IMG/VR virus record: IMGVR_UViG_3300037245_003804
Coordinates: 1 to 52,530 of that record
Reading direction: 5' to 3' (one strand)
Source of the DNA: a virus
Taxonomy: Duplodnaviria > Caudoviricetes
DNA: 52,530 bases
Shown: positions 6,301-52,530 of the stretch, one piece after another
Position numbering within the stretch: position 1 is the stretch's first letter
Layout of the letters: the number at the start of each line of letters is the position of its first letter
The notes under the pieces: model-generated
Databases searched by the model: none
Told to the model about the DNA's origin: nothing
What the model saw: only the letters and a program-made list of their open reading frames with translations
Position numbers and translations under genes: made by a program

Positions 6301-6535
6301 GCTCGATATTCTCCATTGAAAATAGCTTCAATACCTCACCACGGAATATAGAAGTGTGCCGGTTTGTTTTGTCAAGTTCTACATATAATTTATATAACCA
6401 TTGATCATATTCAATATTTGAGTTGCCAATATTATGAATATAATTACTTACAAAGTGATCAATTATCATTTTGAACTGAAATTTATTGTATTTCTTGTTT
6501 GGATCAAATGTAAAACTATCTTTATTGTCTGTCAT
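6293..6535 (-). CDS. Hypothetical protein
   Basis: ORF overlapping both neighbours in an operon-like arrangement. Confidence 0.55.
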   Translation of the reverse strand: MTDNKDSFTFDPNKKYNKFQFKMIIDHFVSNYIHNIGNSNIEYDQWLYKLYVELDKTNRHTSIFRGEVLKLFSMENIEHD

Positions 6536-6851
6536 TTTTTTCTTCCATTATTGAATTATATATAGATTCTCTATATATTTTAATTGAACAATCAAAATCA
6601 AAACCTATATTGTAATAAGATTTAACCTTTCCAAAGTAATGAATTTCTGATTGTACATTTTTAAAAAATTTATAATGATTATGTAATGGTAAAAATAAAT
6701 TATGCGATGAATATTTACCATTAGTCAAGTTAACTTGAAAAAGTATAGAATGATCATTGGCAGTTATTAAATCAAGGGATATATCTGTATTATCGGATTC
6801 ATCTATTAAGATTATTTTTTTATGTTCTTTATTAACCCCTAATACAAGCAT
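6522..6851 (-). CDS. CsrA/RsmA-like protein with internal insertion (probable start MLVL at 6851)
   Basis: Begins MLVL; ends IGFDFDCSIKIYRESIYNSIMEE, similar to CsrA [20 protein letters not shown]; AGGGG upstream of the ATG. Confidence 0.5.
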   Translation of the reverse strand: MLVLGVNKEHKKIILIDESDNTDISLDLITANDHSILFQVNLTNGKYSSHNLFLPLHNHYKFFKNVQSEIHYFGKVKSYYNIGFDFDCSIKIYRESIYNSIMEEKNDRQ

Positions 6852-6873
6852 GCTATATCCCCTGTAATAAATG

Positions 6874-7110
6874 CTAAAATTTAAAATTCCAAAATGGTGG
6901 CCTTCTCGGATTGACGACCTTTGCATTTTTCCATAAATCTAAATCTGTTTTTTTATAAAAAATAGACCTACCATCTTTCACATACTTTGGTGATATTTTT
7001 CCTCTTAAAAATACACGACTGCGTGACTGGTTAAGAGACTGCCAACCAATCCCTAAATACTTGGCAGCCTCTTTTGTATTCAATAATTCATCATCCATTA
7101 TCAGAAACAA
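6874..7110 (-). CDS. Excisionase/AlpA-like winged-HTH DNA-binding protein
   Basis: LLNTKEAAKYLG…PKYVKDGRSIFYKKTDLDLW. Confidence 0.8.
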   Translation of the reverse strand: MFLIMDDELLNTKEAAKYLGIGWQSLNQSRSRVFLRGKISPKYVKDGRSIFYKKTDLDLWKNAKVVNPRRPPFWNFKF

Positions 7111-11317: not shown

Positions 11318-12213
11318 GTTTTATCTCCTGAATAAATTTTATTATGAATCGCCTTCAACGAAGGCGCCTCCTGTTGACTTAATTTACCTGATCGGTCTTT
11401 TGCCTCATATTGACCATCACGTGTTGCTTGTATGTAATGGACGGGATTTCCATTATCATCTTTAGCAAGGCGTAAACAAAATACCTCATCAAATAAATAG
11501 GCAATATTATATGCCAACTTATTGCCTGGCATCGCTGGTAAGTAGAATGTTAAACTGGTAATATCGTCTACTATCCGTTGTTGTTTGGCTATCATCACCA
11601 CATGATAATTAGGCAAATCACGGAATCTCTTCATGATTTTAGTCATTCTGTTAAAAAGCTCACCATAAGCTTTCCTCCCATCTTTGCATTTTTCTAATTC
11701 TTCAGCTAGGACAACTTCTGCAATTTCTGTGATTGAGTCTAATATTATCCATTTAAAATTGGGCATCTTCGGCTCTTCTTTTTCGGGAATTACTGCTTTT
11801 ACATTAGAATCGGGAGGAAGAGCTATTTTGAAAGTATTATTAATCGGTGGTTCATCAGCTTTGTTTTGTTCAATTTCAGGCTCTTCCAATTCTATTTTGA
11901 TGCTATTCATTTCTAGTAATGATTCATATATGTTGGCTAATTCACCTATTGTTGATATCTCAATGACAGAACAGTGTTCTGGTGCAAAATCTTTAGATCC
12001 TTTTTTTATTAATTCTTCCTTATCTTGGTTTAATGATAACAGCCCACTTTCTGCGCTTATTATCAATGTCGGTTCATTCGTAGTTGCAGCAAGCACTGTT
12101 TTGCCGGATCCTGCTGGACCATGAATAAGTATTTTTAGACCGGAATCATGTATAACTTCTGATATCGATTTTATTTTTATAGCCATTCTTTTATTCCCCT
12201 TTTGAATTATCAT
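11314..12213 (-). CDS. AAA_24 / Sak4-like ATPase (annealase); likely start MAIKIK at 12186
   Basis: GPAGSGKT Walker A, IILDSITE Walker B, AKDRSG. Confidence 0.85.
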   Translation of the reverse strand: MIIQKGNKRMAIKIKSISEVIHDSGLKILIHGPAGSGKTVLAATTNEPTLIISAESGLLSLNQDKEELIKKGSKDFAPEHCSVIEISTIGELANIYESLLEMNSIKIELEEPEIEQNKADEPPINNTFKIALPPDSNVKAVIPEKEEPKMPNFKWIILDSITEIAEVVLAEELEKCKDGRKAYGELFNRMTKIMKRFRDLPNYHVVMIAKQQRIVDDITSLTFYLPAMPGNKLAYNIAYLFDEVFCLRLAKDDNGNPVHYIQATRDGQYEAKDRSGKLSQQEAPSLKAIHNKIYSGDKT

Positions 12214-12721
12214 CTATCATATGCGAAATTGATATGCTAGCACCTTTAATATAAGCATCAGTTAAAGGAGAATCGCTTAAATTAGCGCGGGTTAAGTCAA
12301 CACCTATCAAGTCAGCATATTTAAAATCAACTCTCCAAAAAGTAGTGTTAATACAATCCGCACCTCTCAAATCAGTGCTTCTTAAATCGGAACCTGTAAA
12401 ATTAGCGTCTCTTAATGTAGCGTGGTATAATTTAGCACCTATCAAGGTAACATTCACAATATGGGCTGCACTTAAATTAGCACAACTAAGATCAGCACCC
12501 ACCATCCATGAATCAGTTAAATCCGCATCAATCAAGTTAGCATTAGTCAAGTTAGCATGTTGAAAGTTAGCATTTCTCAAATCAGCGCTTTTTAAATAAG
12601 CCCTACTCAAGTTAACACCTCTAAAATCAGCCCTTTCGCCTTCTTTACCTTCGCTATTTAGCCATTTTTTGTGCTTTTCTAAAATTATTTTTATATCTGA
12701 TTTAGTCATATCCATCCTCAT
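12191..12721 (-). CDS. Pentapeptide-repeat protein 1
   Basis: A(D/N)Lxx repeats; ILEKHKKWL…GERADF cap. Confidence 0.92.
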   Translation of the reverse strand: MRMDMTKSDIKIILEKHKKWLNSEGKEGERADFRGVNLSRAYLKSADLRNANFQHANLTNANLIDADLTDSWMVGADLSCANLSAAHIVNVTLIGAKLYHATLRDANFTGSDLRSTDLRGADCINTTFWRVDFKYADLIGVDLTRANLSDSPLTDAYIKGASISISHMIDDNSKGE

Positions 12722-12792: not shown

Positions 12793-13380
12793 CTATCTGT
12801 TTTCTATTTCTCTATTTTTCATGGTATGTATATAGTGTTCTATGGGGAACCCATCGAAACCAATCTGCGCTCCATATTCCCACTCATATATACTTTTGTA
12901 AGGAAGAAAAGAGCATTTTGGATAATTAATCATAGGATCATTATCATGAATATGTTGTGTAATAGGAAGGTTTTTAAAGCGCTTAATTGACCATTTAAGC
13001 ACGCAACGGGGAGCACCAAATGTAATAACCTTAACTATTTCATATCCTCTTAATTCGAGCATCCGGGCTATTAACAATGCAACGGAGCCTCCTAATGAAT
13101 GGCCCGCTATTGTTATTTTATGTGTCTTTAATGTGCAAGCTCTATCTACCTTAGGAAATAGACGTTCTGCTAAAACTAAAGTTGATTTGTTACAGAATCC
13201 AATACCTGGTCTATACCACGGCATGCATTTTAAACTATTAATAGTTGCCAAAATACGGTCAACATTTTTAAATAAAAGCGTAGTAGTGTCAACAGGTCCA
13301 TAAAAAGCAGTGAAATACTCATTAGGTTTATTTATATAAAATTCTTTTATCATTTCAGCTAATTCAAGATCAGGTACCAT
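12793..13380 (-). CDS. Class 3 lipase-like alpha/beta hydrolase
   Basis: GHSLGG nucleophile elbow, ITFGAPR, HDNDP. Confidence 0.8.
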   Translation of the reverse strand: MVPDLELAEMIKEFYINKPNEYFTAFYGPVDTTTLLFKNVDRILATINSLKCMPWYRPGIGFCNKSTLVLAERLFPKVDRACTLKTHKITIAGHSLGGSVALLIARMLELRGYEIVKVITFGAPRCVLKWSIKRFKNLPITQHIHDNDPMINYPKCSFLPYKSIYEWEYGAQIGFDGFPIEHYIHTMKNREIENR

Positions 13381-13563
13381 AGTTCACCCCCACGAAAGTA
13401 TTGAGAATCAATCCCGTTTATCAAAAATATTTTATTAATCCCCTTGCGGGGTGCTCTTTCAATATGTTGATCAGACCATTAAACAACATAAAGAAAGAGC
13501 AGACCTAGCAATAAACAACATCATTCACAAATTAATTGGAATAAATCATTGCTAAGCAAAACC

Positions 13564-13592
13564 AATATACACCACAAATACTCAAATGTCAA
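13564..13592 (-). promoter_or_regulatory. Sigma70-type promoter TTGACA-N17-TATATT
   Basis: Upstream of a hairpin-rich leader and the lipase gene. Confidence 0.55.
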
Positions 13593-14014
13593 CCGAAAGT
13601 AAGCAATGGTTCTTCTTCTTTTTTTATTTCAATAGTTGGAGCGGCGGGAGATTCACTAATACATTCCCAAAAGATATGGTTTTCATCTAATTTATTCATA
13701 GCACTTTTAGAAAGGCTCGGTTTATACCTAACACAATCTAAAGCCAAATCATTATCATCAAAATTTTCTTTTAATTCAATCCATTTTGATTCATCAAGTT
13801 TGTAGGATGTGTTGTATTTTAATTTCAAATCTTTATATTGAGAATTAGATTTCCCGATCTGTTCTCCCATAATCTCTTGACATATTTCTTTTCTTAGTCG
13901 CATTTCTTCGGATTTTGCATCATCTAGCTTTTGTTTTTGAAAAGCCCAATCTCGGATTTTAATTTCTAAACTTTCTTTGTACTGAAAACCAGGCTTTATA
14001 GTATTTACTTTCAT
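13589..14014 (-). CDS. Conserved phage protein (start revised to MKVNT at 14014)
   Basis: GAGG RBS before ATG 14014; coiled coil KSEEMRLRKEI and C-terminal PAAPTIEI. Confidence 0.65.
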   Translation of the reverse strand: MKVNTIKPGFQYKESLEIKIRDWAFQKQKLDDAKSEEMRLRKEICQEIMGEQIGKSNSQYKDLKLKYNTSYKLDESKWIELKENFDDNDLALDCVRYKPSLSKSAMNKLDENHIFWECISESPAAPTIEIKKEEEPLLTFG

Positions 14015-14108
14015 TTTACATCCTCGTAATAAGGCGCCCCTGCCAATGCCGGATGGGGACAAAGACATAGTAGGAAAGGAAGGAAACCTACGTTAGGGCG
14101 CGTAATAG

Positions 14109-14684
14109 TGCAGTTGATTCGTATAACCCGCGCTATACTGGCTCAACTGCTAGGCCGTAGTGTTGAATGCAGTTGATTTTGCGCACCAGGAGGCTTATAA
14201 GACCAAAGGCACACACGGCTCAACTGCTAAGCCGTATTATTAGCATGTTAGTGTTCTGACCAACGGAACTACCACCCCATTGGGCATGACCCCATCAAGG
14301 ACGGGCAGGAGTCGAACCCGCGACCTCTAACATGCTAACAATATTCAATGCAGTTGATTCGTAGGACAGACGACCGGGGCTGCCTACCGGCTCAACTGCT
14401 AAGCCGTAAAGTGACGGCACCCCAAGGTTACCGCCCTCTTTAATAGTGTGCAGCTGATTCATAGGATAGACGACGGAGGCTACCTATCGGCTCAACTGCT
14501 AAGCCGTAGGGCAACGGCATCCCAGCGCGCTGCCGCCCTTATTGAAACAGTGTGCAGTTGATTTAACATGCCATCATATGACCTTATAAAGCTTAGGCAT
14601 GCAAGGCTCAACTGCTAAGCCATATTTGTGCAGTTGATTTGCATGATCTCGGAGATCACGTACGGCTCAACTGCGGAAGCCGTA
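14109..14684 (-). ncRNA. Array of six structured-RNA modules (+ strand TGCAGYTGATT-[variable hairpin]-GGCTCAACTGC(TA/GGA)RGCCRTA)
   Basis: Units at 14109-14159, 14168-14236, 14349-14408, 14449-14508, 14553-14624, 14629-14684; complementary flanks; compensatory changes in the inserts; no ORF in the track. Confidence 0.75.
14235..14343 (-). ncRNA. Circularly permuted, anticodon-less tRNA-like element
   Basis: On the - strand the 3' half (AGGTC, GCGGG-TTCGACT-CCTGC, CCGTCCT) precedes the 5' half (GGGGTGG-TA-GTTC-CGTTGGTCA-GAAC-A-CTAAC); the anticodon stem is extended into a 17-bp closing helix. Confidence 0.75.
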
Positions 14685-14742
14685 TGGTTTAGCCGGGCGG
14701 GAAGTGCTCTTGCCACACTGAATTGCCGGCCTCCAATAGGGG

Positions 14743-15354
14743 TTAATCTAATAGCTTAATAGTCATATAATTGGTTAAGGTTCTTAAATTGGCCATAAAA
14801 GGTCTACAGCTTTGATTAAAATCCCAATCCATATAAGGTGAAAAGTCCGTAGTGTTCGCCGGAGTTTGGATTGTTTTAGCATCACAATCCAGTTTACTTC
14901 TCAATATGAACGCATTATTACCATTAATTATTCTTAGATTCAACTCAGTATGAGAGTAAAGGTGTAAATCTGAATATTCACCCACATTCTCCACATCAAA
15001 TCCAATCGTAACTAATTGTTCACCACCCCCCCTTAAACTGTCAAATTTTGAGTTATAAAGTAGCGTATTTTTTGCGCTAATATAAGCCGGAACATTTTGC
15101 GTGTCATAGGCCGCATAACCAAACTCAAAGCCTTCGACAACACCTAGTGGCACTGGGTGCACAATCACATAGCGATTCCTGCCGTTCTTGGGTGCCCAAG
15201 GTATCCCTACCATTATATAGTCGAGGCCACCCACGGTTATAATATCACCTACATTAGAAGGGATATGCTTATAAGTATAGGTTGTGCCAGAAAATACCAT
15301 TGCGCTGCATAAAACCAAACTTAACGCTATTAATGCTTTTATTGATTTCTTCAT
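14743..15354 (-). CDS. Secreted/periplasmic protein (moron-like)
   Basis: Sec signal peptide MKKSIKALIALSLVLCSAMVFS; GAGAGG RBS; own promoter at 15427-15454. Confidence 0.75.
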   Translation of the reverse strand: MKKSIKALIALSLVLCSAMVFSGTTYTYKHIPSNVGDIITVGGLDYIMVGIPWAPKNGRNRYVIVHPVPLGVVEGFEFGYAAYDTQNVPAYISAKNTLLYNSKFDSLRGGGEQLVTIGFDVENVGEYSDLHLYSHTELNLRIINGNNAFILRSKLDCDAKTIQTPANTTDFSPYMDWDFNQSCRPFMANLRTLTNYMTIKLLD

Positions 15355-15426
15355 TATATTCCTCTCATTTTTGAAATAAAATAAAGTCCTTTTTAAGAAT
15401 TACTCATATCCTATGAATAAAGTACT

Positions 15427-15454
15427 ATTGTACGCGTAAATTACTTTATGTCAA
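15427..15454 (-). promoter_or_regulatory. Sigma70-type promoter TTGACA-N16-TACAAT
   Basis: Intergenic; upstream of the secreted-protein gene and the RNA array. Confidence 0.65.
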
Positions 15455-15475
15455 CTATTAAATGATATTATATTG

Positions 15476-15691
15476 CTATAGTTCTTCGGATGAATTTTTC
15501 ATCGATTTACTATATTTGTCAATCCACTCTTCTATTGCTTTTTTATCATAAAGGACTGATCGCCCTAACTTGATATATATTGGGGAAGGGTAGCCATATA
15601 GGGTTCCCATCACTCGTGAGGTTCTTAATGTGAATTGAGAGCAACCAATGTATTGTGCAGCTTCTTTTGTTTTTAGTCTTTTTATGAGCAT
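15476..15691 (-). CDS. Excisionase/AlpA-like HTH protein (paralog of 6874-7110)
   Basis: LKTKEAAQYIG…PIYIKLGRSVLYDKKAIEEWI. Confidence 0.82.
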   Translation of the reverse strand: MLIKRLKTKEAAQYIGCSQFTLRTSRVMGTLYGYPSPIYIKLGRSVLYDKKAIEEWIDKYSKSMKNSSEEL

Positions 15692-15697
15692 AATTTG

Positions 15698-15997
15698 TTA
15701 TTTTCCTTTAATTAAATTCCTATTATCTTCCCCCATAGATCCACAAAATAAATCTGACCATAAATTAAAATGAAGATTTGTTGTGCTTTCAGAAGTCCAT
15801 AATTTTTTAAATATAATCAGATTATGTACAATGCTATCGTTATCATAAACCCACCCTGGTATATCAAGTCTATACTTATGGTAGTATACCTCTAATATAT
15901 GAAATACCTCTATGAAGTTATTAATATACATACCGTCGTAGTTTACCCTTAATAATGCACATATATTCCTTACTATTAATTCATTATTTCTAGTCAT
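15698..15997 (-). CDS. Hypothetical protein (possible paralog of 16011-16280)
   Basis: INNFIEVF…IVHNLIIFKKL…FNLWSDLF aligns by eye with the neighbour. Confidence 0.55.
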   Translation of the reverse strand: MTRNNELIVRNICALLRVNYDGMYINNFIEVFHILEVYYHKYRLDIPGWVYDNDSIVHNLIIFKKLWTSESTTNLHFNLWSDLFCGSMGEDNRNLIKGK

Positions 15998-16010
15998 TTA
16001 AATCCCCTAG

Positions 16011-16291: not shown

Positions 16292-16864
16292 TTATGGCTC
16301 ATAATCCTCAGGAAATTTAGTGCCTTCCAAATAGCAATGGCTCAAGTTAGAAAACCTAAAATTTACCATGCGGAAGTCAGCACGCCTTAAATCAGAACCG
16401 TACAAGTTAGCACCAGTCAAGTTAGAATACCTGAAATCTGCATTATTTAAATTAGAAAAGCTCAAGTTAGAATAACTTAAATCAACACGCATTAAATCAG
16501 CTCCCCATAACGTAGCTCCTGTAAAGTCAGTATTTTCTAAATCGGAAAACTGTAAATTAGCATTTTTTAACCAAGCACCTCTAAAATCAACACCTATCAT
16601 CTTGGCACGTTTTAAACAAGTATCTGTCAAATCAGCACGGCTTAAATTAGCAGCCATTAAGTTAGCATCAGTAAAAATAGTATGTCTTAATCTGCAAAAA
16701 TTTAAATCAATACCTATCAGTATAGATTCTCTTAAATCAACACCATCCAAATCCTCACCTGTTAGTACTTGATGACTTAAATCAGCTTGCTCACCTTTTT
16801 TGCATTTACTTTCCAACCATTCTTTATGCTTTTCCAAAATAATATATAAATCTGATTTTTTCAT
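16292..16864 (-). CDS. Pentapeptide-repeat protein 2
   Basis: A(D/N)Lxx repeats; ILEKHKEWL…GEQADL cap; FPEDYEP end. Confidence 0.92.
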   Translation of the reverse strand: MKKSDLYIILEKHKEWLESKCKKGEQADLSHQVLTGEDLDGVDLRESILIGIDLNFCRLRHTIFTDANLMAANLSRADLTDTCLKRAKMIGVDFRGAWLKNANLQFSDLENTDFTGATLWGADLMRVDLSYSNLSFSNLNNADFRYSNLTGANLYGSDLRRADFRMVNFRFSNLSHCYLEGTKFPEDYEP

Positions 16865-17685
16865 GGTTTATAATCCTTAGGAAAGATAATAGTATGATCT
16901 AAATAGCATTTTTCCATGTTGATATTTTTAAGATTTGCTGTACTAAAGTCGGCATTTTTTAATGTAACTCCCCTTAATTTAGCGTTACTTAAATTAGTAT
17001 ACAGAAAACTGACATAGCTCAAGTCCGCATCAGTCAAGTCAACACCAGTCAAGTCAGCGCCATTCAAGCTAGAGCCTATCAATTTAGCGCCATATAACTC
17101 AGCATTTACCAAGCGAGCATCCCATAAAGAAGCCCCTAAAAAATCAACTTCTTGTAAGTTAGCATTCATTAAGTTAGCTTCTTTTAAATCAGAACAATTT
17201 AAGCTAGCGCGAGTCAAGTCAGCTTTACTTAAATTAGTATTTCTCAATTTAGAATAATTTAAATTAGCGCCACTTAAATTAGCTTCACTCAAGTCAGCTT
17301 CACTTAAATCATAACCGACTAAGTCAGCGTTACTTAAATCAGCTCTTTCGCCACTTTCTCCTTTGGTATGCAACCATTCCCTATGTTTTTCTAATATGAT
17401 TTGTAATTCTGTTTTATTTATTGTTGTATGTTCATATCCTTTTAATAATGTACATGTAACAAAATAATCCCAATCTGTGGTAGGTTTATATAATTTTTTA
17501 AAAAACGGCTCGCATCTCATAATAAACGAAAGTTCTTTATTTCTTTTATCAGTTTGAAATGTATCTTCACAATTTGAATCATCTAAATGTTTATAGTTGC
17601 CCTTTAATTCAAAAAAATAAAAACTATCAATTGATTCGCGTTCATTATAGGTATGTCTTACCATAAAGCATGTGTATGTAATCAT
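16861..17685 (-). CDS. PTKDWDYF-domain plus pentapeptide-repeat fusion protein
   Basis: N-terminal FFELKGNYKHL…KPTTDWDYFV, then ILEKHREWL…GERADL and pentapeptide repeats. Confidence 0.88.
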   Translation of the reverse strand: MITYTCFMVRHTYNERESIDSFYFFELKGNYKHLDDSNCEDTFQTDKRNKELSFIMRCEPFFKKLYKPTTDWDYFVTCTLLKGYEHTTINKTELQIILEKHREWLHTKGESGERADLSNADLVGYDLSEADLSEANLSGANLNYSKLRNTNLSKADLTRASLNCSDLKEANLMNANLQEVDFLGASLWDARLVNAELYGAKLIGSSLNGADLTGVDLTDADLSYVSFLYTNLSNAKLRGVTLKNADFSTANLKNINMEKCYLDHTIIFPKDYKP

Positions 17686-22115: not shown

Positions 22116-22220
22116 ATCAAAAGTTGGGAGTAGCTATCTCAACTATTCCTTAGCCGCTTTTTTGAGCATTCCCCCTAATGTCCAATCAAGCGGCTTTTTA
22201 TCCTAAATTAAGGGGCATAA

Positions 22221-24413
22221 ATGGATAAATTACCAGTTACTTGCGCCGCTCTAGTAAAAGTAAAGGCTAACGAAAAAAACCCATTCCTTAAAAAATGGCC
22301 AAATCTAGTTCATGAAGAAAAAGACCTTTTGTCTCACCATAATAGTGGTGGCAATTTAGGCATAAAAACAAAATTTCACCCCGCTTTTGACATTGATATC
22401 GATGATAATCCCGAACTATGCCACGAAATCTCTACATTCATACAAGAACGGCATTCTCCGTGGTGTGTGCGGAAGCGCTCCAATTCAGCACGCTTTTTAA
22501 TAGCTTTCGAACTGAAAAAGGGTAGTGAACCTTTCAAAAAGCAAGTAATCCCTGTTGATAATGGAAAAATAGAGTTGCTGGCTAATGGTCAACAGTTTGT
22601 AGCGTGGGGTAATCATGATAGTGGGGTACCCTATGAAACCACGATATTTGAGGATAGCGACCCATTAACATCAGAACAATGCCGTGATTTGTTTAACGAT
22701 ATCACCCTTAACTTTGGAATCAATAAGCAAAGATCAGTCATTGACTTAAATACAGCCGATATCCACACCCACGCTGATGTCGTTAAAACTATTATTGATT
22801 GGGATAAAAAGGGCTGTCGTTATGACATGCTCAAAAAGTTAGCCTATATGAATAATAAAGAGGGGGTATCGGATAACTATAATATCAATGCCTTACAAGC
22901 TCTTATGTGGTCAGTACCCGAAGATAAGAGGGATGACGAGTGGCAACTATACATGAAGGAAAATGGGCGCTTAGAACGTCTTGTGACCGATTTAAGCAGA
23001 CTAAAGAAACCCACCATTCCTATCCCATCCAACCCTTTAGAATCCACTACCCCCATTTTCCCCGGCGATACTATTAATGAATGGCCAGAGCCATGGCCAA
23101 TGATATGGGCGGAATGGAAGAAATTCCCCCTGGATTTAAACGAAACCTTGTTATTCCCTACCATGCTTTGTGCGCATGCTTATCTTCTCCGTGGGAACTA
23201 TTTGACTGAATATGGTCGCCGTCCTAACTTTTTCTTCCTTAATTTAGCGCCAAGTACTGCGGGGAAAGACATCAACAGCACGGATGTTATTGCAGATATT
23301 GACGATTATATGAAGTTAAAAGGGGCTATTAACACTCCTTTTACTGAAATGAGAAGCCGAGGCATGAACATTACGGCTGATACCTCATTTTTAGAATCTA
23401 TTGTGGATAACCAATTGTTTTGGATTCACACTGAAGCATCCAATATTTTCAGGCAACTCAAAAATAGTGCCAATAATAGCCACGTAGCGGCTTTATCAGA
23501 TAAAATGATTGAGGTGGTTGATGGGAAAATGATTTCTGGCAAAGCCAAAGCAGGCAAAAAAATCAATAACATCCATGATCCTAACGTACAGATTTTATTC
23601 TATGCTCAGCCTGAAACCATTGAAGATACCATTGATATCCATATGGTGGATAGCGGCTTGTTTGGTCGTTCCATCATCTCTATATTGCCAGAAATTGACC
23701 TTAATATTGATAAATTTGCTTTATTCCAAAGAGAAAGAAAGCATAAACCTGCCCTTTCTGATGAGTTGAGGAATTTTTATATACAAAAATTGAACCACCC
23801 CCAACAAGCATCTAAAACGAGAATTTGTATCCCTGAACATGAAAAAGAAGAAATGGACAAGGAATGGTCAAAAACTAAAATAGCACAATTATTGATAAGT
23901 CATAAACATGATGATTCTATTACAAAATTATTGCTTAGAATGGGTAACCTGGGGGAACAAATCTATACCGTGATTTGCGGGGTCTCTCAGCTGTGGTCCA
24001 TTCTCCACGATAAATTTTACGATCCCATTGAAATAAAGAAATTAATCCCCATCCTTGATTATTGGGTTGATTGTAAAATGTATGCCGTAAAACATCTGAT
24101 AAACTCCGCTATTGATCCACTAAGTGATATCTATCTTGCTGCGATTGCCTCTCTTTTAGAAAGGGGATCGTTTTATAGGAGGCATGCCAACCCATCCCAA
24201 AAAGAGATGTTAGAAGAGGGCTATGTTTCTCGCGCAAAATTAAAGCATCATTTATCAAAAAGTAAGCGGTTGATCCGTTTGTGCTGTAAAGAAACCCATA
24301 AAGGCGACATTTCCGTGCGGTTTGATTCTATCCATCGATCATTAATCTTAAATGGGATAGTTGTTGAAAAGGCATTGAATGAAACGCCTTATGTTGCTAT
24401 TTTAGCGTCTTGA
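22221..24413 (+). CDS. Bifunctional primase-polymerase with C-terminal helicase-like domain
   Basis: K.P…W, NLGI, FDIDID, IELLANGQQFVAWG.H.SG.PY (prim-pol); APSTAGKD P-loop-like motif and DSGLFGR. Confidence 0.82.
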   Translation: MDKLPVTCAALVKVKANEKNPFLKKWPNLVHEEKDLLSHHNSGGNLGIKTKFHPAFDIDIDDNPELCHEISTFIQERHSPWCVRKRSNSARFLIAFELKKGSEPFKKQVIPVDNGKIELLANGQQFVAWGNHDSGVPYETTIFEDSDPLTSEQCRDLFNDITLNFGINKQRSVIDLNTADIHTHADVVKTIIDWDKKGCRYDMLKKLAYMNNKEGVSDNYNINALQALMWSVPEDKRDDEWQLYMKENGRLERLVTDLSRLKKPTIPIPSNPLESTTPIFPGDTINEWPEPWPMIWAEWKKFPLDLNETLLFPTMLCAHAYLLRGNYLTEYGRRPNFFFLNLAPSTAGKDINSTDVIADIDDYMKLKGAINTPFTEMRSRGMNITADTSFLESIVDNQLFWIHTEASNIFRQLKNSANNSHVAALSDKMIEVVDGKMISGKAKAGKKINNIHDPNVQILFYAQPETIEDTIDIHMVDSGLFGRSIISILPEIDLNIDKFALFQRERKHKPALSDELRNFYIQKLNHPQQASKTRICIPEHEKEEMDKEWSKTKIAQLLISHKHDDSITKLLLRMGNLGEQIYTVICGVSQLWSILHDKFYDPIEIKKLIPILDYWVDCKMYAVKHLINSAIDPLSDIYLAAIASLLERGSFYRRHANPSQKEMLEEGYVSRAKLKHHLSKSKRLIRLCCKETHKGDISVRFDSIHRSLILNGIVVEKALNETPYVAILAS

Positions 24414-24414
24414 T

Positions 24415-24423
24415 TGGTATAAT
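24415..24423 (+). promoter_or_regulatory. Extended -10 promoter (TGnTATAAT) upstream of a hairpin and the tRNA
   Basis: TGGTATAAT right after the primase stop codon. Confidence 0.55.
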
Positions 24424-24523
24424 AAGCTTAACATAGCCCCCTCGCCTCTGTGCACATCGAAAGACTCACCATGGTTTTTCGAAAACTCGAGCAGTGCACG
24501 CGCAACTTGGGGGCTATTCTCTA

Positions 24524-24600
24524 CGGGGTATAGCGCAGCCTGGTAGCGCATCCGCTTTGGGAGTGGAGGGCCGGGAGTTCAAATCTCCCTACCCCGACCA
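24524..24600 (+). tRNA. trnP: tRNA-Pro(UGG)
   Basis: 77-nt cloverleaf: CGGGGTA/TACCCCG acceptor, TCCGC-TTTGGGA-GTGGA anticodon arm, GTTCAAATC T loop, encoded ACCA. Confidence 0.95.
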
Positions 24601-24630
24601 ATCAATAGAACTACATTAAAACACATAAAA

Positions 24631-25098
24631 TCAATTCTTTTTGAGGGGATTATGGTTTTTAGCATAGCTCTTCTCCCTTATGCCACTTTCATTCATTAAA
24701 CTATAAATCTGTTCCTCATACATTCGTTTGCTTATTAAACATTCATATATGGACTCTTTAGAACGATATAGATCGCCTTCAATTAGGACATAGGAATCGC
24801 ATATTTTTTTGTGGGGGTTGGTAATTGTAAATAAACCATATCGTCTTTCTATTTCTTTGGCAATGTTATGGAGCTCAAAAAAACGCTCTAGTTTATCAGT
24901 GTTAACTATGCACGCATCACGTACATTGCGCAATCTATTCAAATAATCAATAGATATTCTACTTATTTCTGCTATGTTTTTATAATTCAAGTTGATCGCG
25001 TATTTTATTAACGTGCATGCGTCATCCATACACATTATAAAGACTTTAGTATCAATCATTATCCGAACCATCCCCATCCACACACCTAGAGGTGTCAA
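24631..25098 (-). CDS. HTH-like protein (paralog of the C-terminal part of 25052-25633)
   Basis: LNYKNIAEISRIS and KESIYECLIS shared with the neighbour. Confidence 0.65.
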   Translation of the reverse strand: MTPLGVWMGMVRIMIDTKVFIMCMDDACTLIKYAINLNYKNIAEISRISIDYLNRLRNVRDACIVNTDKLERFFELHNIAKEIERRYGLFTITNPHKKICDSYVLIEGDLYRSKESIYECLISKRMYEEQIYSLMNESGIREKSYAKNHNPLKKN

Positions 25099-31234: not shown

Positions 31235-31325
31235 GAGCTAATGTGGGGCTGCTAGGGAGATTTGAATCAATAACCTATATGATTGGGTTAAGATGATAAT
31301 TAAATTGCTTAGGCGCCCATTGAGA

Positions 31326-31431
31326 GGGGTGCGCGCGTAAAGAGGCATCTCAATACAGGCGCGCGTTAAAAATGGCATTTTGATGGGGGTACGTGCTTAG
31401 AATGGCATTAATAGGGTGCGCGCTAACGCAT
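31326..31431. repeat. Four degenerate repeats (GG(G)Y-GCGCG…GGCATT-like)
   Basis: gggtgcgcgcgtaaagaggcat / aggcgcgcgttaaaaatggcatt / gggtacgtgcttagaatggcatt / gggtgcgcgctaacgcatt. Confidence 0.5.
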
Positions 31432-31448
31432 TAAGATGGGTTGTTTTG

Positions 31449-50716: not shown

Positions 50717-51942
50717 ACCTTCTCGAAACAGCATTTCCTGCATCTTATAAAGAAGTTGGTTTTTCAGTAGACGGAACAACCACTACTGGTGGAATTAAAA
50801 ACGTTAAACATGTTTTTGTTAATAGTGACAATCAAAATATAGAACTGTTAGGTGTTAAACTAAAAAGCTACCCAGTAAGAGCATTTATAAATAATACCAA
50901 GGATGAAGCTTATAAGTTAAAAAGAGACAATTTAGTAAAAGTTCTTGATGATCAAGAAAGTGGAAAATTAGTTCATCCATTTTTAGGAATAATTGACAAT
51001 GTTATAGCAACAGAATGGACTTTAACTGAAGATTTCAGACAATTTGGAAAAGCAAGGTTTACTATTCAATTTGAATCAACGTTGCCACAAAGTGTTCCCG
51101 AGGTAGCATCCAATTCATTAAGTCAAGTGCAAGAAAAAGAAAAAGATGTAGCAGATGGGACGAAAAAGGACACTGAAGAAAATTTCTTAATTACATTCAG
51201 CAAAAATATAAATGACTCGATATCTCAAGTTAATTCAATAGTTGAAGAAATAAATAATAATTCCAATCTATTTTCTATAACAGAAGACCAGGTAAATATT
51301 TTCAATAATCAAGTGGGACAGTTGAGTGCTAATGCTGCAAATTTAGTAAGAGACCCCGTGGCGTTAGCATCATCATTAAATAACGTTTTTTCTACTATTT
51401 CAGGAATGTACGTTACTGTTGAAGCTGCCTTAGGTGTTATGGCTAATTTCTTTAATTTTGGTGCTGATGATATACCTATTGATGATAACACAATTTCTAA
51501 TATTGAAAGAAAAAAGAATAGAAAAATATTAAACGATAATATCAATGCTTATTCTTTGGCTCATGCTTATACATTAGCAAGTCAATTAGACTTCACTACT
51601 ATAGAACAACAAAACGAAATAGCTGACGTTCTTGAGGAACAATATCAATTTATTATTAAGGATGATGTTATAGAAAATCTTAGTGGTGTTGATGAGTTAA
51701 TAGGTATATCAACTGATACTAAGTTGGAAATAACCGATCAAAGAGGAGCGGTTGAGAATCTTTTTGATGATAATAGAATAATACTTGGACAAATAATAGA
51801 AATCATTACAACAGAGATAAGCACTAGATTATTATCTTATCAATATTATGGTGATTCGGAATTGGGAGAAGATATTGCAAATCTAAATAATATAAGTGAC
51901 TCATCTTTCGCTAATGGAACTATAAAAATAATTTCATCATGA
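50713..51942 (+). CDS. Mu gpN-like DNA-circulation/tail protein
   Basis: ASYK.V.F, GKLVHPFLG, F.IQF.E, C-terminal LSYQYYGD…I..LN.I. Confidence 0.82.
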   Translation: MNLLETAFPASYKEVGFSVDGTTTTGGIKNVKHVFVNSDNQNIELLGVKLKSYPVRAFINNTKDEAYKLKRDNLVKVLDDQESGKLVHPFLGIIDNVIATEWTLTEDFRQFGKARFTIQFESTLPQSVPEVASNSLSQVQEKEKDVADGTKKDTEENFLITFSKNINDSISQVNSIVEEINNNSNLFSITEDQVNIFNNQVGQLSANAANLVRDPVALASSLNNVFSTISGMYVTVEAALGVMANFFNFGADDIPIDDNTISNIERKKNRKILNDNINAYSLAHAYTLASQLDFTTIEQQNEIADVLEEQYQFIIKDDVIENLSGVDELIGISTDTKLEITDQRGAVENLFDDNRIILGQIIEIITTEISTRLLSYQYYGDSELGEDIANLNNISDSSFANGTIKIISS

Positions 51943-52530
51943 GTATTATTATTGAAGTAAATGGAGTTCCATATAATAATTTCCTAAAAGGAAGAGTCAA
52001 TATACGTTTGGACTCGTTGTGCAATACTTTTCATTTTATTATAGCGAAAAACGATAATTCTGTTTTACCATTTTCTGTTAGTGACAAATGTAAAGTACTT
52101 GTAAATAATGTATTGGTATTGACTGGGGTTATTGAGGTATTAGAAGTTACATATGATAAAGATAGTCATACTTTAGATATTTCAGGAAGGGATAATACAT
52201 CAGATATAGTTGACTCGTATATTGATAATTTATCCGATATAGGAAAAGGTGTTAGTTTAAAAAACATTATTGAAAAAATTATAGAAGATATTGGATCTGA
52301 CGTAAAAGTATTGGAAGGCACTGAAATAAATGAAACAAGCAGGAATGAATTTGACACAAATGATGTTGCTTCCCCAGAACCCGGGTCTAGTGCTTTTGAA
52401 TTTATAGAGCATTTAGCAAGACAACGACAAGTTCTTTTAACGTCAAATGGAGATGGGAATATTGTTATAACACAAGGGAGTCAAGAAAAGTTAGGTAATG
52501 CAAAATTGCAGTATATAATAAATGGAAAAG
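51939..52530 (+). CDS. N-terminal half of Mu gp44-like baseplate hub (continues at 1-551)
   Basis: ATGA overlap with the gpN-like gene; MSIIIEVNG…LTGVIE…ISGRDNTSDIVDS; open to the window end. Confidence 0.85.
   Translation, partial: MSIIIEVNGVPYNNFLKGRVNIRLDSLCNTFHFIIAKNDNSVLPFSVSDKCKVLVNNVLVLTGVIEVLEVTYDKDSHTLDISGRDNTSDIVDSYIDNLSDIGKGVSLKNIIEKIIEDIGSDVKVLEGTEINETSRNEFDTNDVASPEPGSSAFEFIEHLARQRQVLLTSNGDGNIVITQGSQEKLGNAKLQYIINGK
52498..52530. repeat. Terminal direct repeat, right copy
   Basis: 32/33 identity to positions 1-33. Confidence 0.9.

Follow-up and report, generated by a model that had tools for sequence, protein, structure and literature searches.

The 52,530-nt record IMGVR_UViG_3300037245_003804 of a Caudoviricetes virus (in the following referred to as the window, i.e. 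the whole stretch of DNA analyzed) carries on its minus strand an array of six repeat units at positions 14109-14684, and among them, at 14235-14343, an element that reads as a circularly permuted tRNA mimic with the build of YrlA. We tentatively propose, with a probability of roughly 40%, that this is a co-transcribed array of handle-and-cargo RNAs that work like Y RNAs, combining a constant part for protein docking with variable parts for display. The tRNA mimic inside the array, which a preliminary description of the locus had treated separately, gives the strongest hint as to what type of system this is, and this hint points to Y RNAs.

Six units with shared ends and differing middles had been reported in the preliminary description, along with a modular build in which a constant scaffold carries a swappable hairpin, and both were reproduced with the same coordinates and the same consensus on the minus strand. 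In RNA order, each unit comprises UAYGGC, a linker of 3-4 nt (UUA, CUA or UUCC) and GCAGUUGAGCC, followed by an insert that measures 20-41 nt and by AAUCARCUGCA. When one mismatch was allowed, the 11-mer GGCTCAACTGC from the 5' block was found six times in the window, always within the array, as compared to 0.26 expected occurrences, and none of 100 shuffles reached six copies. The 3' block (TGCAGYTGATT) is present in six exact copies in the array and in three additional copies with one mismatch elsewhere in the window, as compared to 2.8 expected occurrences. Over 28 scaffold positions, the units share a mean pairwise identity of 97.6% (minimum 92.9%), whereas the inserts share only 34-59% upon optimal global alignment, a level that such alignment also yields for unrelated short sequences; exceptions are the insert pairs u3/u4 (79%) and u2/u5 (63%). 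Therefore, recent duplication alone is insufficient to account for the array; either the scaffold would have to be under selection or cargo would have to be exchanged. The units follow each other at irregular start-to-start distances (59, 116, 100, 172 and 77 nt), and one 8-mer is present twelve times in the array in alternating orientation.

All six units adopt the same fold, both in the minimum free energy (MFE) and in the centroid structure. As had been recognized before, GCAGUUGA pairs with UCARCUGC across the insert, forming 8 bp in six of six units, and each insert folds on itself. Inside the 8-bp helix lies an internal loop, with GCCN in its 5' half and NAA or NAAA in its 3' half, which is followed by an apical hairpin of 7-8 bp, and the 12-nt 5' tail is free. 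Calculated energies range from -5.8 to -12.8 kcal/mol for the insert hairpins and from -19.7 to -26.9 kcal/mol for whole units, which have z-scores of -2.2 to -4.0 and were matched by equally good folds in 0 to 6 of 200 shuffles.

Unit u1 (14629-14684) starts with the tail UACGGC (14684-14679) and the linker UUCC, followed by the 5' strand of the 8-bp helix, hereafter called handle (14674-14667), GCC, an insert hairpin of 8 bp with loop CCG, AA, the 3' strand (14637-14630) and an A at 14629 (MFE -20.3 kcal/mol, z -3.49). Unit u2 (14553-14624; z -2.37) possesses the tail UAUGGC, the linker UUA, handle strands at 14615-14608 and 14561-14554 and a 41-nt insert with a 7-bp stem and a large loop containing AAGCUU and UUAUAA. 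In u3 (14449-14508; handle strands 14499-14492 and 14457-14450; z -2.24), the 3' strand of the handle carries an A-to-G variant, and the insert is paralogous to that of u4 (14349-14408; handle strands 14399-14392 and 14357-14350; z -2.21). Unit u5 (14168-14236; handle strands 14227-14220 and 14176-14169; z -3.75) has an insert paralogous to that of u2, in which three stem pairs are G-U on the minus strand. Finally, u6 (14109-14159; z -3.97) contains the linker CUA, handle strands at 14150-14143 and 14117-14110, an apical hairpin of 7 bp with loop GCGG and an A at 14109. The insert loops of u2 (14562-14607) and u5 (14177-14219) include short palindromes on the minus strand, namely AAGCUU and UUAUAA in u2 and CUUAUAAG in u5, which could mediate loop-loop pairing between units or molecules. 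The linkers harbor two small hairpins on the minus strand: H1 (14513-14537, between u2 and u3; GGCGGCA/UGCCGUU, 7 bp), which on its own is not significant (z +0.42), and its paralog H2 (14413-14435, between u3 and u4; z -1.50).

The unit fold is well supported, and the array is very probably read as an RNA from the minus strand, in the same direction as the flanking genes, as the preliminary description had suggested. This assignment is based on stability, on one-sided changes to G-U and on the shape of the embedded element, which resembles a tRNA on the minus strand only. The whole array is calculated to fold with -232.8 kcal/mol on the minus strand as compared to -212.3 kcal/mol on the plus strand. 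For the unit cores, the minus strand gives the more stable fold in all six cases (u5 with -27.1 versus -13.1 kcal/mol), and the same holds for five of six units when the tails are included, the exception being u4, which folds better on the plus strand by 0.6 kcal/mol. To compare paralogs, 47 stem pairs were scored in two insert pairs (u3/u4 and u2/u5) and one pair of linker hairpins (H1/H2). Three of the 47 pairs were changed on both sides with pairing kept, and two cells were unpaired. The two double compensatory changes that had been noticed between the insert stems of u3 and u4 are real (A-U/G-C and U-A/C-G). All seven one-sided changes result in G-U on the minus strand and hence in A-C on the plus strand, which corresponds to 1/128 in a sign test assuming that both are equally likely after a transition; two of them, in H2 relative to H1, leave pairs as G-U. 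The handle stem shows a single variant, the U-A to U-G change caused by the A-to-G exchange in one 3' strand, and its reading as a wobble pair on the minus strand is thereby confirmed. All twelve handle strands are interchangeable, and a 3' strand can also pair to the 5' strand in the following unit; between u4 and u5 this would lengthen the stem of the tRNA mimic. Pairing within units is favored because the array opens with a 5' strand and closes with a 3' strand, and because such pairing should form first.

The preliminary description had further proposed a pseudoknot. Indeed, (C)GGC in the tail is complementary to GCC(G) located directly 3' of the 5' helix strand, and the loop lengths allow the geometry of an H-type pseudoknot with a first loop of 3 nt, no second loop and a third loop made of the insert hairpin and AA. 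An A-rich third loop beside a G-C stem is typical of H-type pseudoknots. The GGC/GCC pairing is possible in six of six units, and a fourth pair (C-G) fails in two of them (U-U in u2, C-A in u6). With the insert hairpin kept closed, the 3-4 bp contribute -4.9 to -6.7 kcal/mol, which is marginal, and as the GGC/GCC pairs never vary, they receive no support from covariation. Moreover, the pseudoknot competes with an alternative 7-bp hairpin composed of CGGCUUA and UGAGCCG with loop GCAGU, which excludes the 8-bp helix and lies 1.6-4.2 kcal/mol above the helix fold in u1, u3, u4 and u5. In u6, the CUA linker introduces a C-A mismatch into this 5' hairpin, and for this unit we can follow the earlier remark that certain variants pair better on the plus strand. 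We consider the pseudoknot possible, though not well supported. In the course of transcription, the 7-bp hairpin might form first and the 3' strand might later invade its loop, which would correspond to the usual route to a pseudoknot.

The element between u4 and u5 (14235-14343, minus strand) is closed by a stem of 17 bp, whose last base overlaps with the tail of u5. In RNA order, its first half contains one stem strand, AGGUC, the T arm GCGGG-UUCGACU-CCUGC, CCGUCCU and a linker of ~19 nt; the second half is composed of GGGGUGG, UA, the D arm GUUC-CGUUGGUCA-GAAC, an A and the second stem strand. The D arm contains GG, AGGUC corresponds to a 5-nt variable loop, and the acceptor stem comprises 7 bp. 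Thus, the element represents a whole tRNA body with a sealed acceptor end and an open stem in place of the anticodon arm, which appears as an inverted repeat. The complementary acceptor strands and the closing stem can be read directly from the sequence, and on this ground we identify the element as a putative permuted tRNA mimic of YrlA build. The Rfam model of YrlA (RF02553) aligns to it over model positions 1-114 (36.5 bits, E 1.1e-5). Its fold is more stable on the minus (-44.4 kcal/mol) than on the plus strand (-34.0 kcal/mol), with a z-score of -4.65. A tRNA-like domain is restricted to this element and absent from the six units.

The array resides in an island of 674 nt (14069-14742, minus strand; GC 0.51, top 9-mer present six times), which contains no open reading frame (ORF) of at least 60 aa, in agreement with the RNA interpretation, and which is the longest of six runs of at least 200 nt in the window that lack an ORF of this size. 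Another such run, at 31235-31448, has a GC content of 0.45 and one 9-mer present twice. GC content within the island is 0.48-0.53 as compared to 0.35 for the genome and 0.30-0.38 for most flanks. Upstream, on the same strand, lies a gene for a 203-aa protein (14743-15354) that has no match in any library searched and none in Atlas; it is preceded by a promoter-like site at 15454-15427 (TTGACA, 16-nt spacer, TACAAT; 11 of 12 positions). No terminator-like site was found in 13500-15600. Downstream, a DUF7173 gene follows (13589-14068, minus strand), whose AlphaFold structure model is poor (pLDDT 48). The protein has only three relatives, and because these begin at M19, translation probably starts at 14014. 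The trailer that separates u6 from the DUF7173 start (14010-14108, minus strand) can form two hairpins closed by GCGCCCU/AGGGGCGC just upstream of the ribosome-binding region (z -1.26); neither leader nor trailer folds are significant. Beyond DUF7173, genes for a lipase-like protein, a pentapeptide-repeat protein, Sak4, SSB, a Cas4-type exonuclease and a helicase continue in the same orientation. When eight neighboring proteins were submitted to PADLOC, a single weak match to mad1 (E 0.0035) and no match of ToxN type were returned. Three pentapeptide-repeat proteins are encoded on the minus strand near the array (12191-12721, 16292-16864 and 16861-17685). Pentapeptide-repeat proteins are common in cyanobacteria, and their presence fits the kinship of the terminase to those of Synechococcus phages, as the closest cultured terminases, with 40% identity, belong to two such phages.

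The phage is of the myovirus type, and its gene products include a sheath, a tape-measure protein and baseplate proteins resembling those of Mu. Its DNA was found in one sequencing run, of a marine sediment metagenome that is probably the source sample, and no RNA run was listed as containing it. Completeness of the record was estimated at 70% by CheckV. However, the ends of the record split a single gene for a Mu GpP-like baseplate hub protein, with the first and second domains at 51939-52529 and the fourth at 3-551, from which we infer that the genome is complete and circularly permuted. RtcB is absent from the phage. For the protein encoded at 6522-6926 (minus strand), searches of Pfam, PHROGs, NCBIfam and PADLOC gave no match to CsrA, the sole hit being a weak sub-threshold one to Staphostatin_A.

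Relatives of the scaffold were sought in several ways, and in the databases searched the array is known so far from a single genome. As to the units, no Rfam family matched at E<=10 in a cmscan-type search of 13000-16000, a check for which the preliminary description had called. An exact pattern yielded at least 119 single matches in viral contigs (IMG/VR), and among those listed the two-part unit pattern was found in none; a second pattern gave 11 matches, none of which is a unit and one of which is a tRNA, and a further pattern gave two. Among 83 single matches in JGI metagenome contigs, GGC was present 3-4 nt upstream in four, all of them single-copy, and no array was found. A scan of genome contigs, in which each of 185,579 species is represented by one genome, gave 112 pattern matches, which are isolated chance matches; in the 114 genome matches examined, the 3' strand within 110 nt was found in none and a partial one in six.

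A covariance model of the unit (R1), the kind of search advocated in the preliminary description for phage and metagenome sequences, retrieved no homologs either. On 96 loci selected by pattern, its best score was 26.2 bits, obtained inside a 198-aa ORF, as compared to 64.8-67.8 bits for real units. It gave four matches with E<=1 (best 16.5 bits) on 50 TerL-related viral records, one chance match of 25.7 bits inside a 180-aa ORF on three cyanobacterial genomes, and none on 151 further cyanobacterial genomes or on 45 kb of phage Felix O1 including its tRNA array. Of note, R1 recovers four of its own six units with default filters and hence would miss variants with long inserts. Comparison with 50,697 phage records by blastn revealed nothing at E<=1e-5 and only short chance pieces at E<=10. 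RF02553 was without matches on three records and subsequently on 50 related viral records. No comparable ORF-free island was detected in ten TerL-related records by a screen whose ORF mask is crude in GC-rich genomes. Locus searches with the flanking proteins yielded nothing, apart from one locus for Sak4. Likewise, a full-text search of the literature, whose scope did not extend to the phage YrlA loci tabulated in the supplement of PMC4201824, uncovered no description of such an array.

In the Y-RNA-like mechanism that we favor, the 0.67-kb island would be transcribed together with both flanking minus-strand genes, giving rise to six paralogous modules, two small linker hairpins and one tRNA mimic of YrlA type. 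Units could be released by cuts in the A/U-rich single-stranded linkers after every handle, and RNase P might cut at the 7-bp acceptor stem of the mimic. The handle, consisting of the 8-bp helix GCAGUUGA/UCAACUGC, the GCCN/NAA internal loop and the 5' tail UAYGGC-UUA, would serve as docking site for one RNA-binding partner, leaving the apical hairpin free to vary. As the phage has no Ro60-like gene, the partner would probably be a host protein or an unrecognized phage protein. The resulting particle would display the variable hairpins and the tRNA mimic, and might act as the Y RNAs YrlA/YrlB do, by tethering the protein to other factors, or might instead be a sponge for it.

Several results weigh against this proposal. 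The YrlA score of the mimic (36.5 bits) is below the Rfam gathering cut-off of 69 bits, and as RF02553 also produces sub-threshold matches in 9-13 out of 14 control genomes, including genomes that have no TROVE match, the score alone proves little. Motifs thought to be contacted by Ro60 (GNCGAAN0-1G and GGUCCGA) as well as CAGCAA are absent from both strands of the locus (14010-14750). Searches of the phage at E<=1 detected neither TROVE (PF05731) nor PF11443 and PF25043, used to look for DUF2828 and DUF7788, and ORF86 of Felix O1 had no tblastn match in it; as the genome looks complete, a missing partner gene is unlikely. Since no homologs of the scaffold were found, all inferences are drawn from six paralogs of a single genome, whose scaffold identity might have been inflated by gene conversion. 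In addition, shuffle controls of the paralog alignments, with two rows each, were uninformative (119/500 and 228/500).

A rather unlikely alternative is that the island functions as an intercistronic stabilizer or punctuation element, whose hairpins or pseudoknots block exonucleases or direct endonucleolytic cuts and thereby set the half-lives of the flanking mRNAs. REP/BIME elements and exonuclease-resistant RNAs provide models for such a role. Consistent with it, the island separates two co-oriented genes in a region where no terminator-like site was found, the modules fold stably (-19.7 to -26.9 kcal/mol), and pairing of the 5' tail with the junction inside the fold would produce a geometry like that of exonuclease-resistant RNAs. 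However, a stabilizer needs neither a 28-nt scaffold kept at 97.6% identity beside freely varying hairpins, nor six copies, nor a tRNA mimic, and none of the ten TerL-related records inspected contains a comparable island.

We also regard it as unlikely that units and mimic form a decoy array soaking up an RNA-targeting defense protein of the host, e.g. a nuclease or modifier of tRNA ends or bodies or a type III toxin, for which pseudo-ToxI is a precedent. Many copies of one binding surface and an anticodon-less tRNA look-alike in the same transcript would suit this purpose, and the array belongs to a minus-strand gene block that includes replication and recombination genes. Yet, no toxin or defense gene is linked, the weak mad1 match being the only signal from PADLOC, and ToxI-type arrays differ from the units by their fixed period and by repeats that are nearly identical over their whole length. 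The suggestion of a ToxI-like array in the preliminary description is not supported, given the irregular spacing and the lack of ToxN-type or other PADLOC matches for the flanking genes. Two further roles considered there fare no better. A guide-like function directed at the phage's own genome finds no support, because stretches of complementarity between the inserts and other parts of the phage measure 8-12 nt and are no better than those of shuffled inserts, and an RNA anti-CRISPR is disfavored by the absence of a CRISPR repeat family and by 'spacers' that are self-complementary paralogs.

Quite improbable is an element acting at the DNA level, i.e. a set of sites for a replication initiator, a recombinase or a packaging protein (iterons, attC-like or REP-like), or hairpins formed in single-stranded DNA. 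Twelve copies of an 8-mer in alternating orientation, in a block with Sak4, SSB, exonuclease and helicase genes, are reminiscent of such elements, and GTTGAGC/GCTCAAC fit the integron core consensus GTTRRRY/RYYYAAC. On the other hand, spacing is irregular (59-172 bp), the 'cassettes' between the attC-like cores would measure just 20-50 bp, and no integrase was found among the ORFs scanned in the window. Seven of seven one-sided changes favoring one strand and three compensatory ones are features that double-stranded sites do not need. Only on the minus strand does the embedded element have the shape of a tRNA, and the turning points of the cumulative GC skew are near 5 kb and 33 kb rather than at the array.

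The units might alternatively be pseudoknotted mimics of the tRNA acceptor/T-arm minihelix that capture or divert tRNA-end enzymes or defense toxins, an idea to which we likewise assign a low probability. In this model, the 8-bp handle and the 4-bp CGGC/GCCG stem stacked on it would add up to 12 bp, with an unpaired A at the end. The units and the anticodon-less mimic would then constitute a battery of tRNA-end look-alikes, with RNase P, the CCA-adding enzyme and toxins modifying tRNA ends as possible targets. If true, this would reveal an RNA family and a counter-defense principle without a described relative.

Very doubtful is a new self-cleaving or conformation-switching RNA, in which units would toggle between the 7-bp hairpin and the 8-bp handle or pseudoknot and cut themselves out. 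In u1, u3, u4 and u5, the two folds exclude each other and differ in energy by no more than ~4 kcal/mol, the conserved junction nucleotides (GCC, AA, UUA) are otherwise unexplained, and a tandem layout would suit self-processing; but no ribozyme family matches at E<=10, and the topology has no HDV-like P3/L3 and does not fit the pistol fold. Non-functional remains of tandem duplications kept uniform by gene conversion, though compatible with an occurrence in one genome without detectable homologs, are the least probable explanation, as conversion would have homogenized the inserts as well, which are unrelated yet each keep a hairpin, and as the changes in the stems preserve pairing.

Returning to the proposal of Y-RNA-like handle-and-cargo RNAs, if the units are made and bound by protein, they would represent an array with a handle unrelated to known Ro60-binding motifs in a phage without a Ro60-like gene. 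Tethering or decoy RNAs of such design would then not be tied to Ro60. The array would also offer a clean case for how phages use non-decoding tRNA mimics, limited to one environmental genome, and the island is small (0.67 kb) and self-contained, making it testable by cloning.

Compared with known systems, a CRISPR array or RNA anti-CRISPR was rejected, as no family of CRISPR direct repeats matches at E<=10 and the 'spacers' are hairpins, two pairs of which are paralogous; the corresponding 'repeats' between units are not constant and span 30-138 nt, to which handle strands contribute 16 nt and linkers 14-122 nt. Known ribozymes (HDV-like, pistol, twister, hammerhead and hatchet) were discarded in the absence of covariance-model matches at E<=10 in 13000-16000. 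Transfer-messenger RNA (tmRNA) and the 3' ends of plant viruses resemble the locus in that a tRNA-like domain is found beside several candidate H-type pseudoknots, and the order of T arm, acceptor 3' strand, loop and acceptor 5' strand in the mimic matches two-piece (permuted) tmRNA genes. A tmRNA was nevertheless rejected: at the mimic, ARAGORN called no tRNA or tmRNA by default or with relaxed settings (-ps), and its calls at -ps70 are inconsistent, overlapping each other and providing no recognizable tag. Moreover, pair 3-70 is G-C and not G-U, D arm and variable loop are complete, and there is no convincing tag reading frame.

Arrays of ToxI, CptI and TenpI and pseudo-ToxI are similar in being tandem RNA arrays directly upstream of a small gene. 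ToxI-type units are considered to fold as pseudoknots and to bind a protein, and their repeats are near-identical throughout with a fixed period of 34-45 nt. In contrast, the present units have a period of 59-172 nt and unrelated middles, and the downstream DUF7173 gene is not ToxN-like.

A further parallel is provided by phage Felix O1 (AF320576), which at 23850-24700, among tRNA genes, carries four small units composed of AGACC, NNUUACAGCAA, varied cargo and GGUCU, the fourth with a T-arm-first tRNA-like cargo. Just upstream, at 22118-23533, lies a DUF2828 plus DUF7788 gene, and the YrlA model has no match in the unit region at E<=0.1. These stem-plus-UUACAGCAA units and the Class I RNAs of Dictyostelium (RF01414; PMC7919456) share with our array the tandem arrangement of RNAs with one handle and swappable cargo, a permuted tRNA mimic among the cargo and a conserved 11-nt motif beside a short GC-rich stem; UUA-CAG is common to UUACAGCAA of Felix O1 and UUAGCAGUUGA of the array. 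However, the Felix O1 stem (AGACC/GGUCU) encloses motif and cargo, whereas in the present array only the motif is enclosed by the short stem and the cargo is outside. Furthermore, the motif here pairs with the 3' strand, CAGCAA is absent, no DUF2828 neighbor is present, and RF01414 does not match the array at E<=10.

As described in PMC4201824 (Chen et al. 2014), YrlA contains a tRNA-like domain and YrlB forms a hairpin; in M. smegmatis, both derive from one precursor, and YrlA of this species, whose acceptor stem comprises 7 bp, is cleaved by RNase P. According to the same source, Ro60 is thought to contact GNCGAAN0-1G (or GGUCCGA) in the 5' strand of the basal stem. Thermus phage phiLo is reported to carry two Y-like RNAs (Yrl1/Yrl2) beside its Ro60 gene (PMC12135203). 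As in these cases, several structured RNAs are arranged in a row here, and one tRNA-like domain is closed at its acceptor end on a stem. The units share with other Y RNAs the succession of stem, internal loop and stem as well as the division into a constant docking part and a variable displayed part. Unlike Y RNAs, the locus has no Ro60/TROVE or DUF2828 gene, no GNCGAAN0-1G (bare CGAA occurs twice on the minus strand, at the 3' junctions of u4 and u6) and a YrlA score below cut-off; the handle of the units is different, with a conserved single-stranded motif outside the terminal stem that may pair into a pseudoknot. A Ro60 encoded by the host is a possible partner. Taken together, by the features examined the array does not qualify as a member of the Y RNAs, the Class I-like handle RNAs, the ToxI-type antitoxins, CRISPR repeats, tmRNA or the known ribozymes; in its likely mode of working, as judged by analogy, it probably resembles Y RNAs most.

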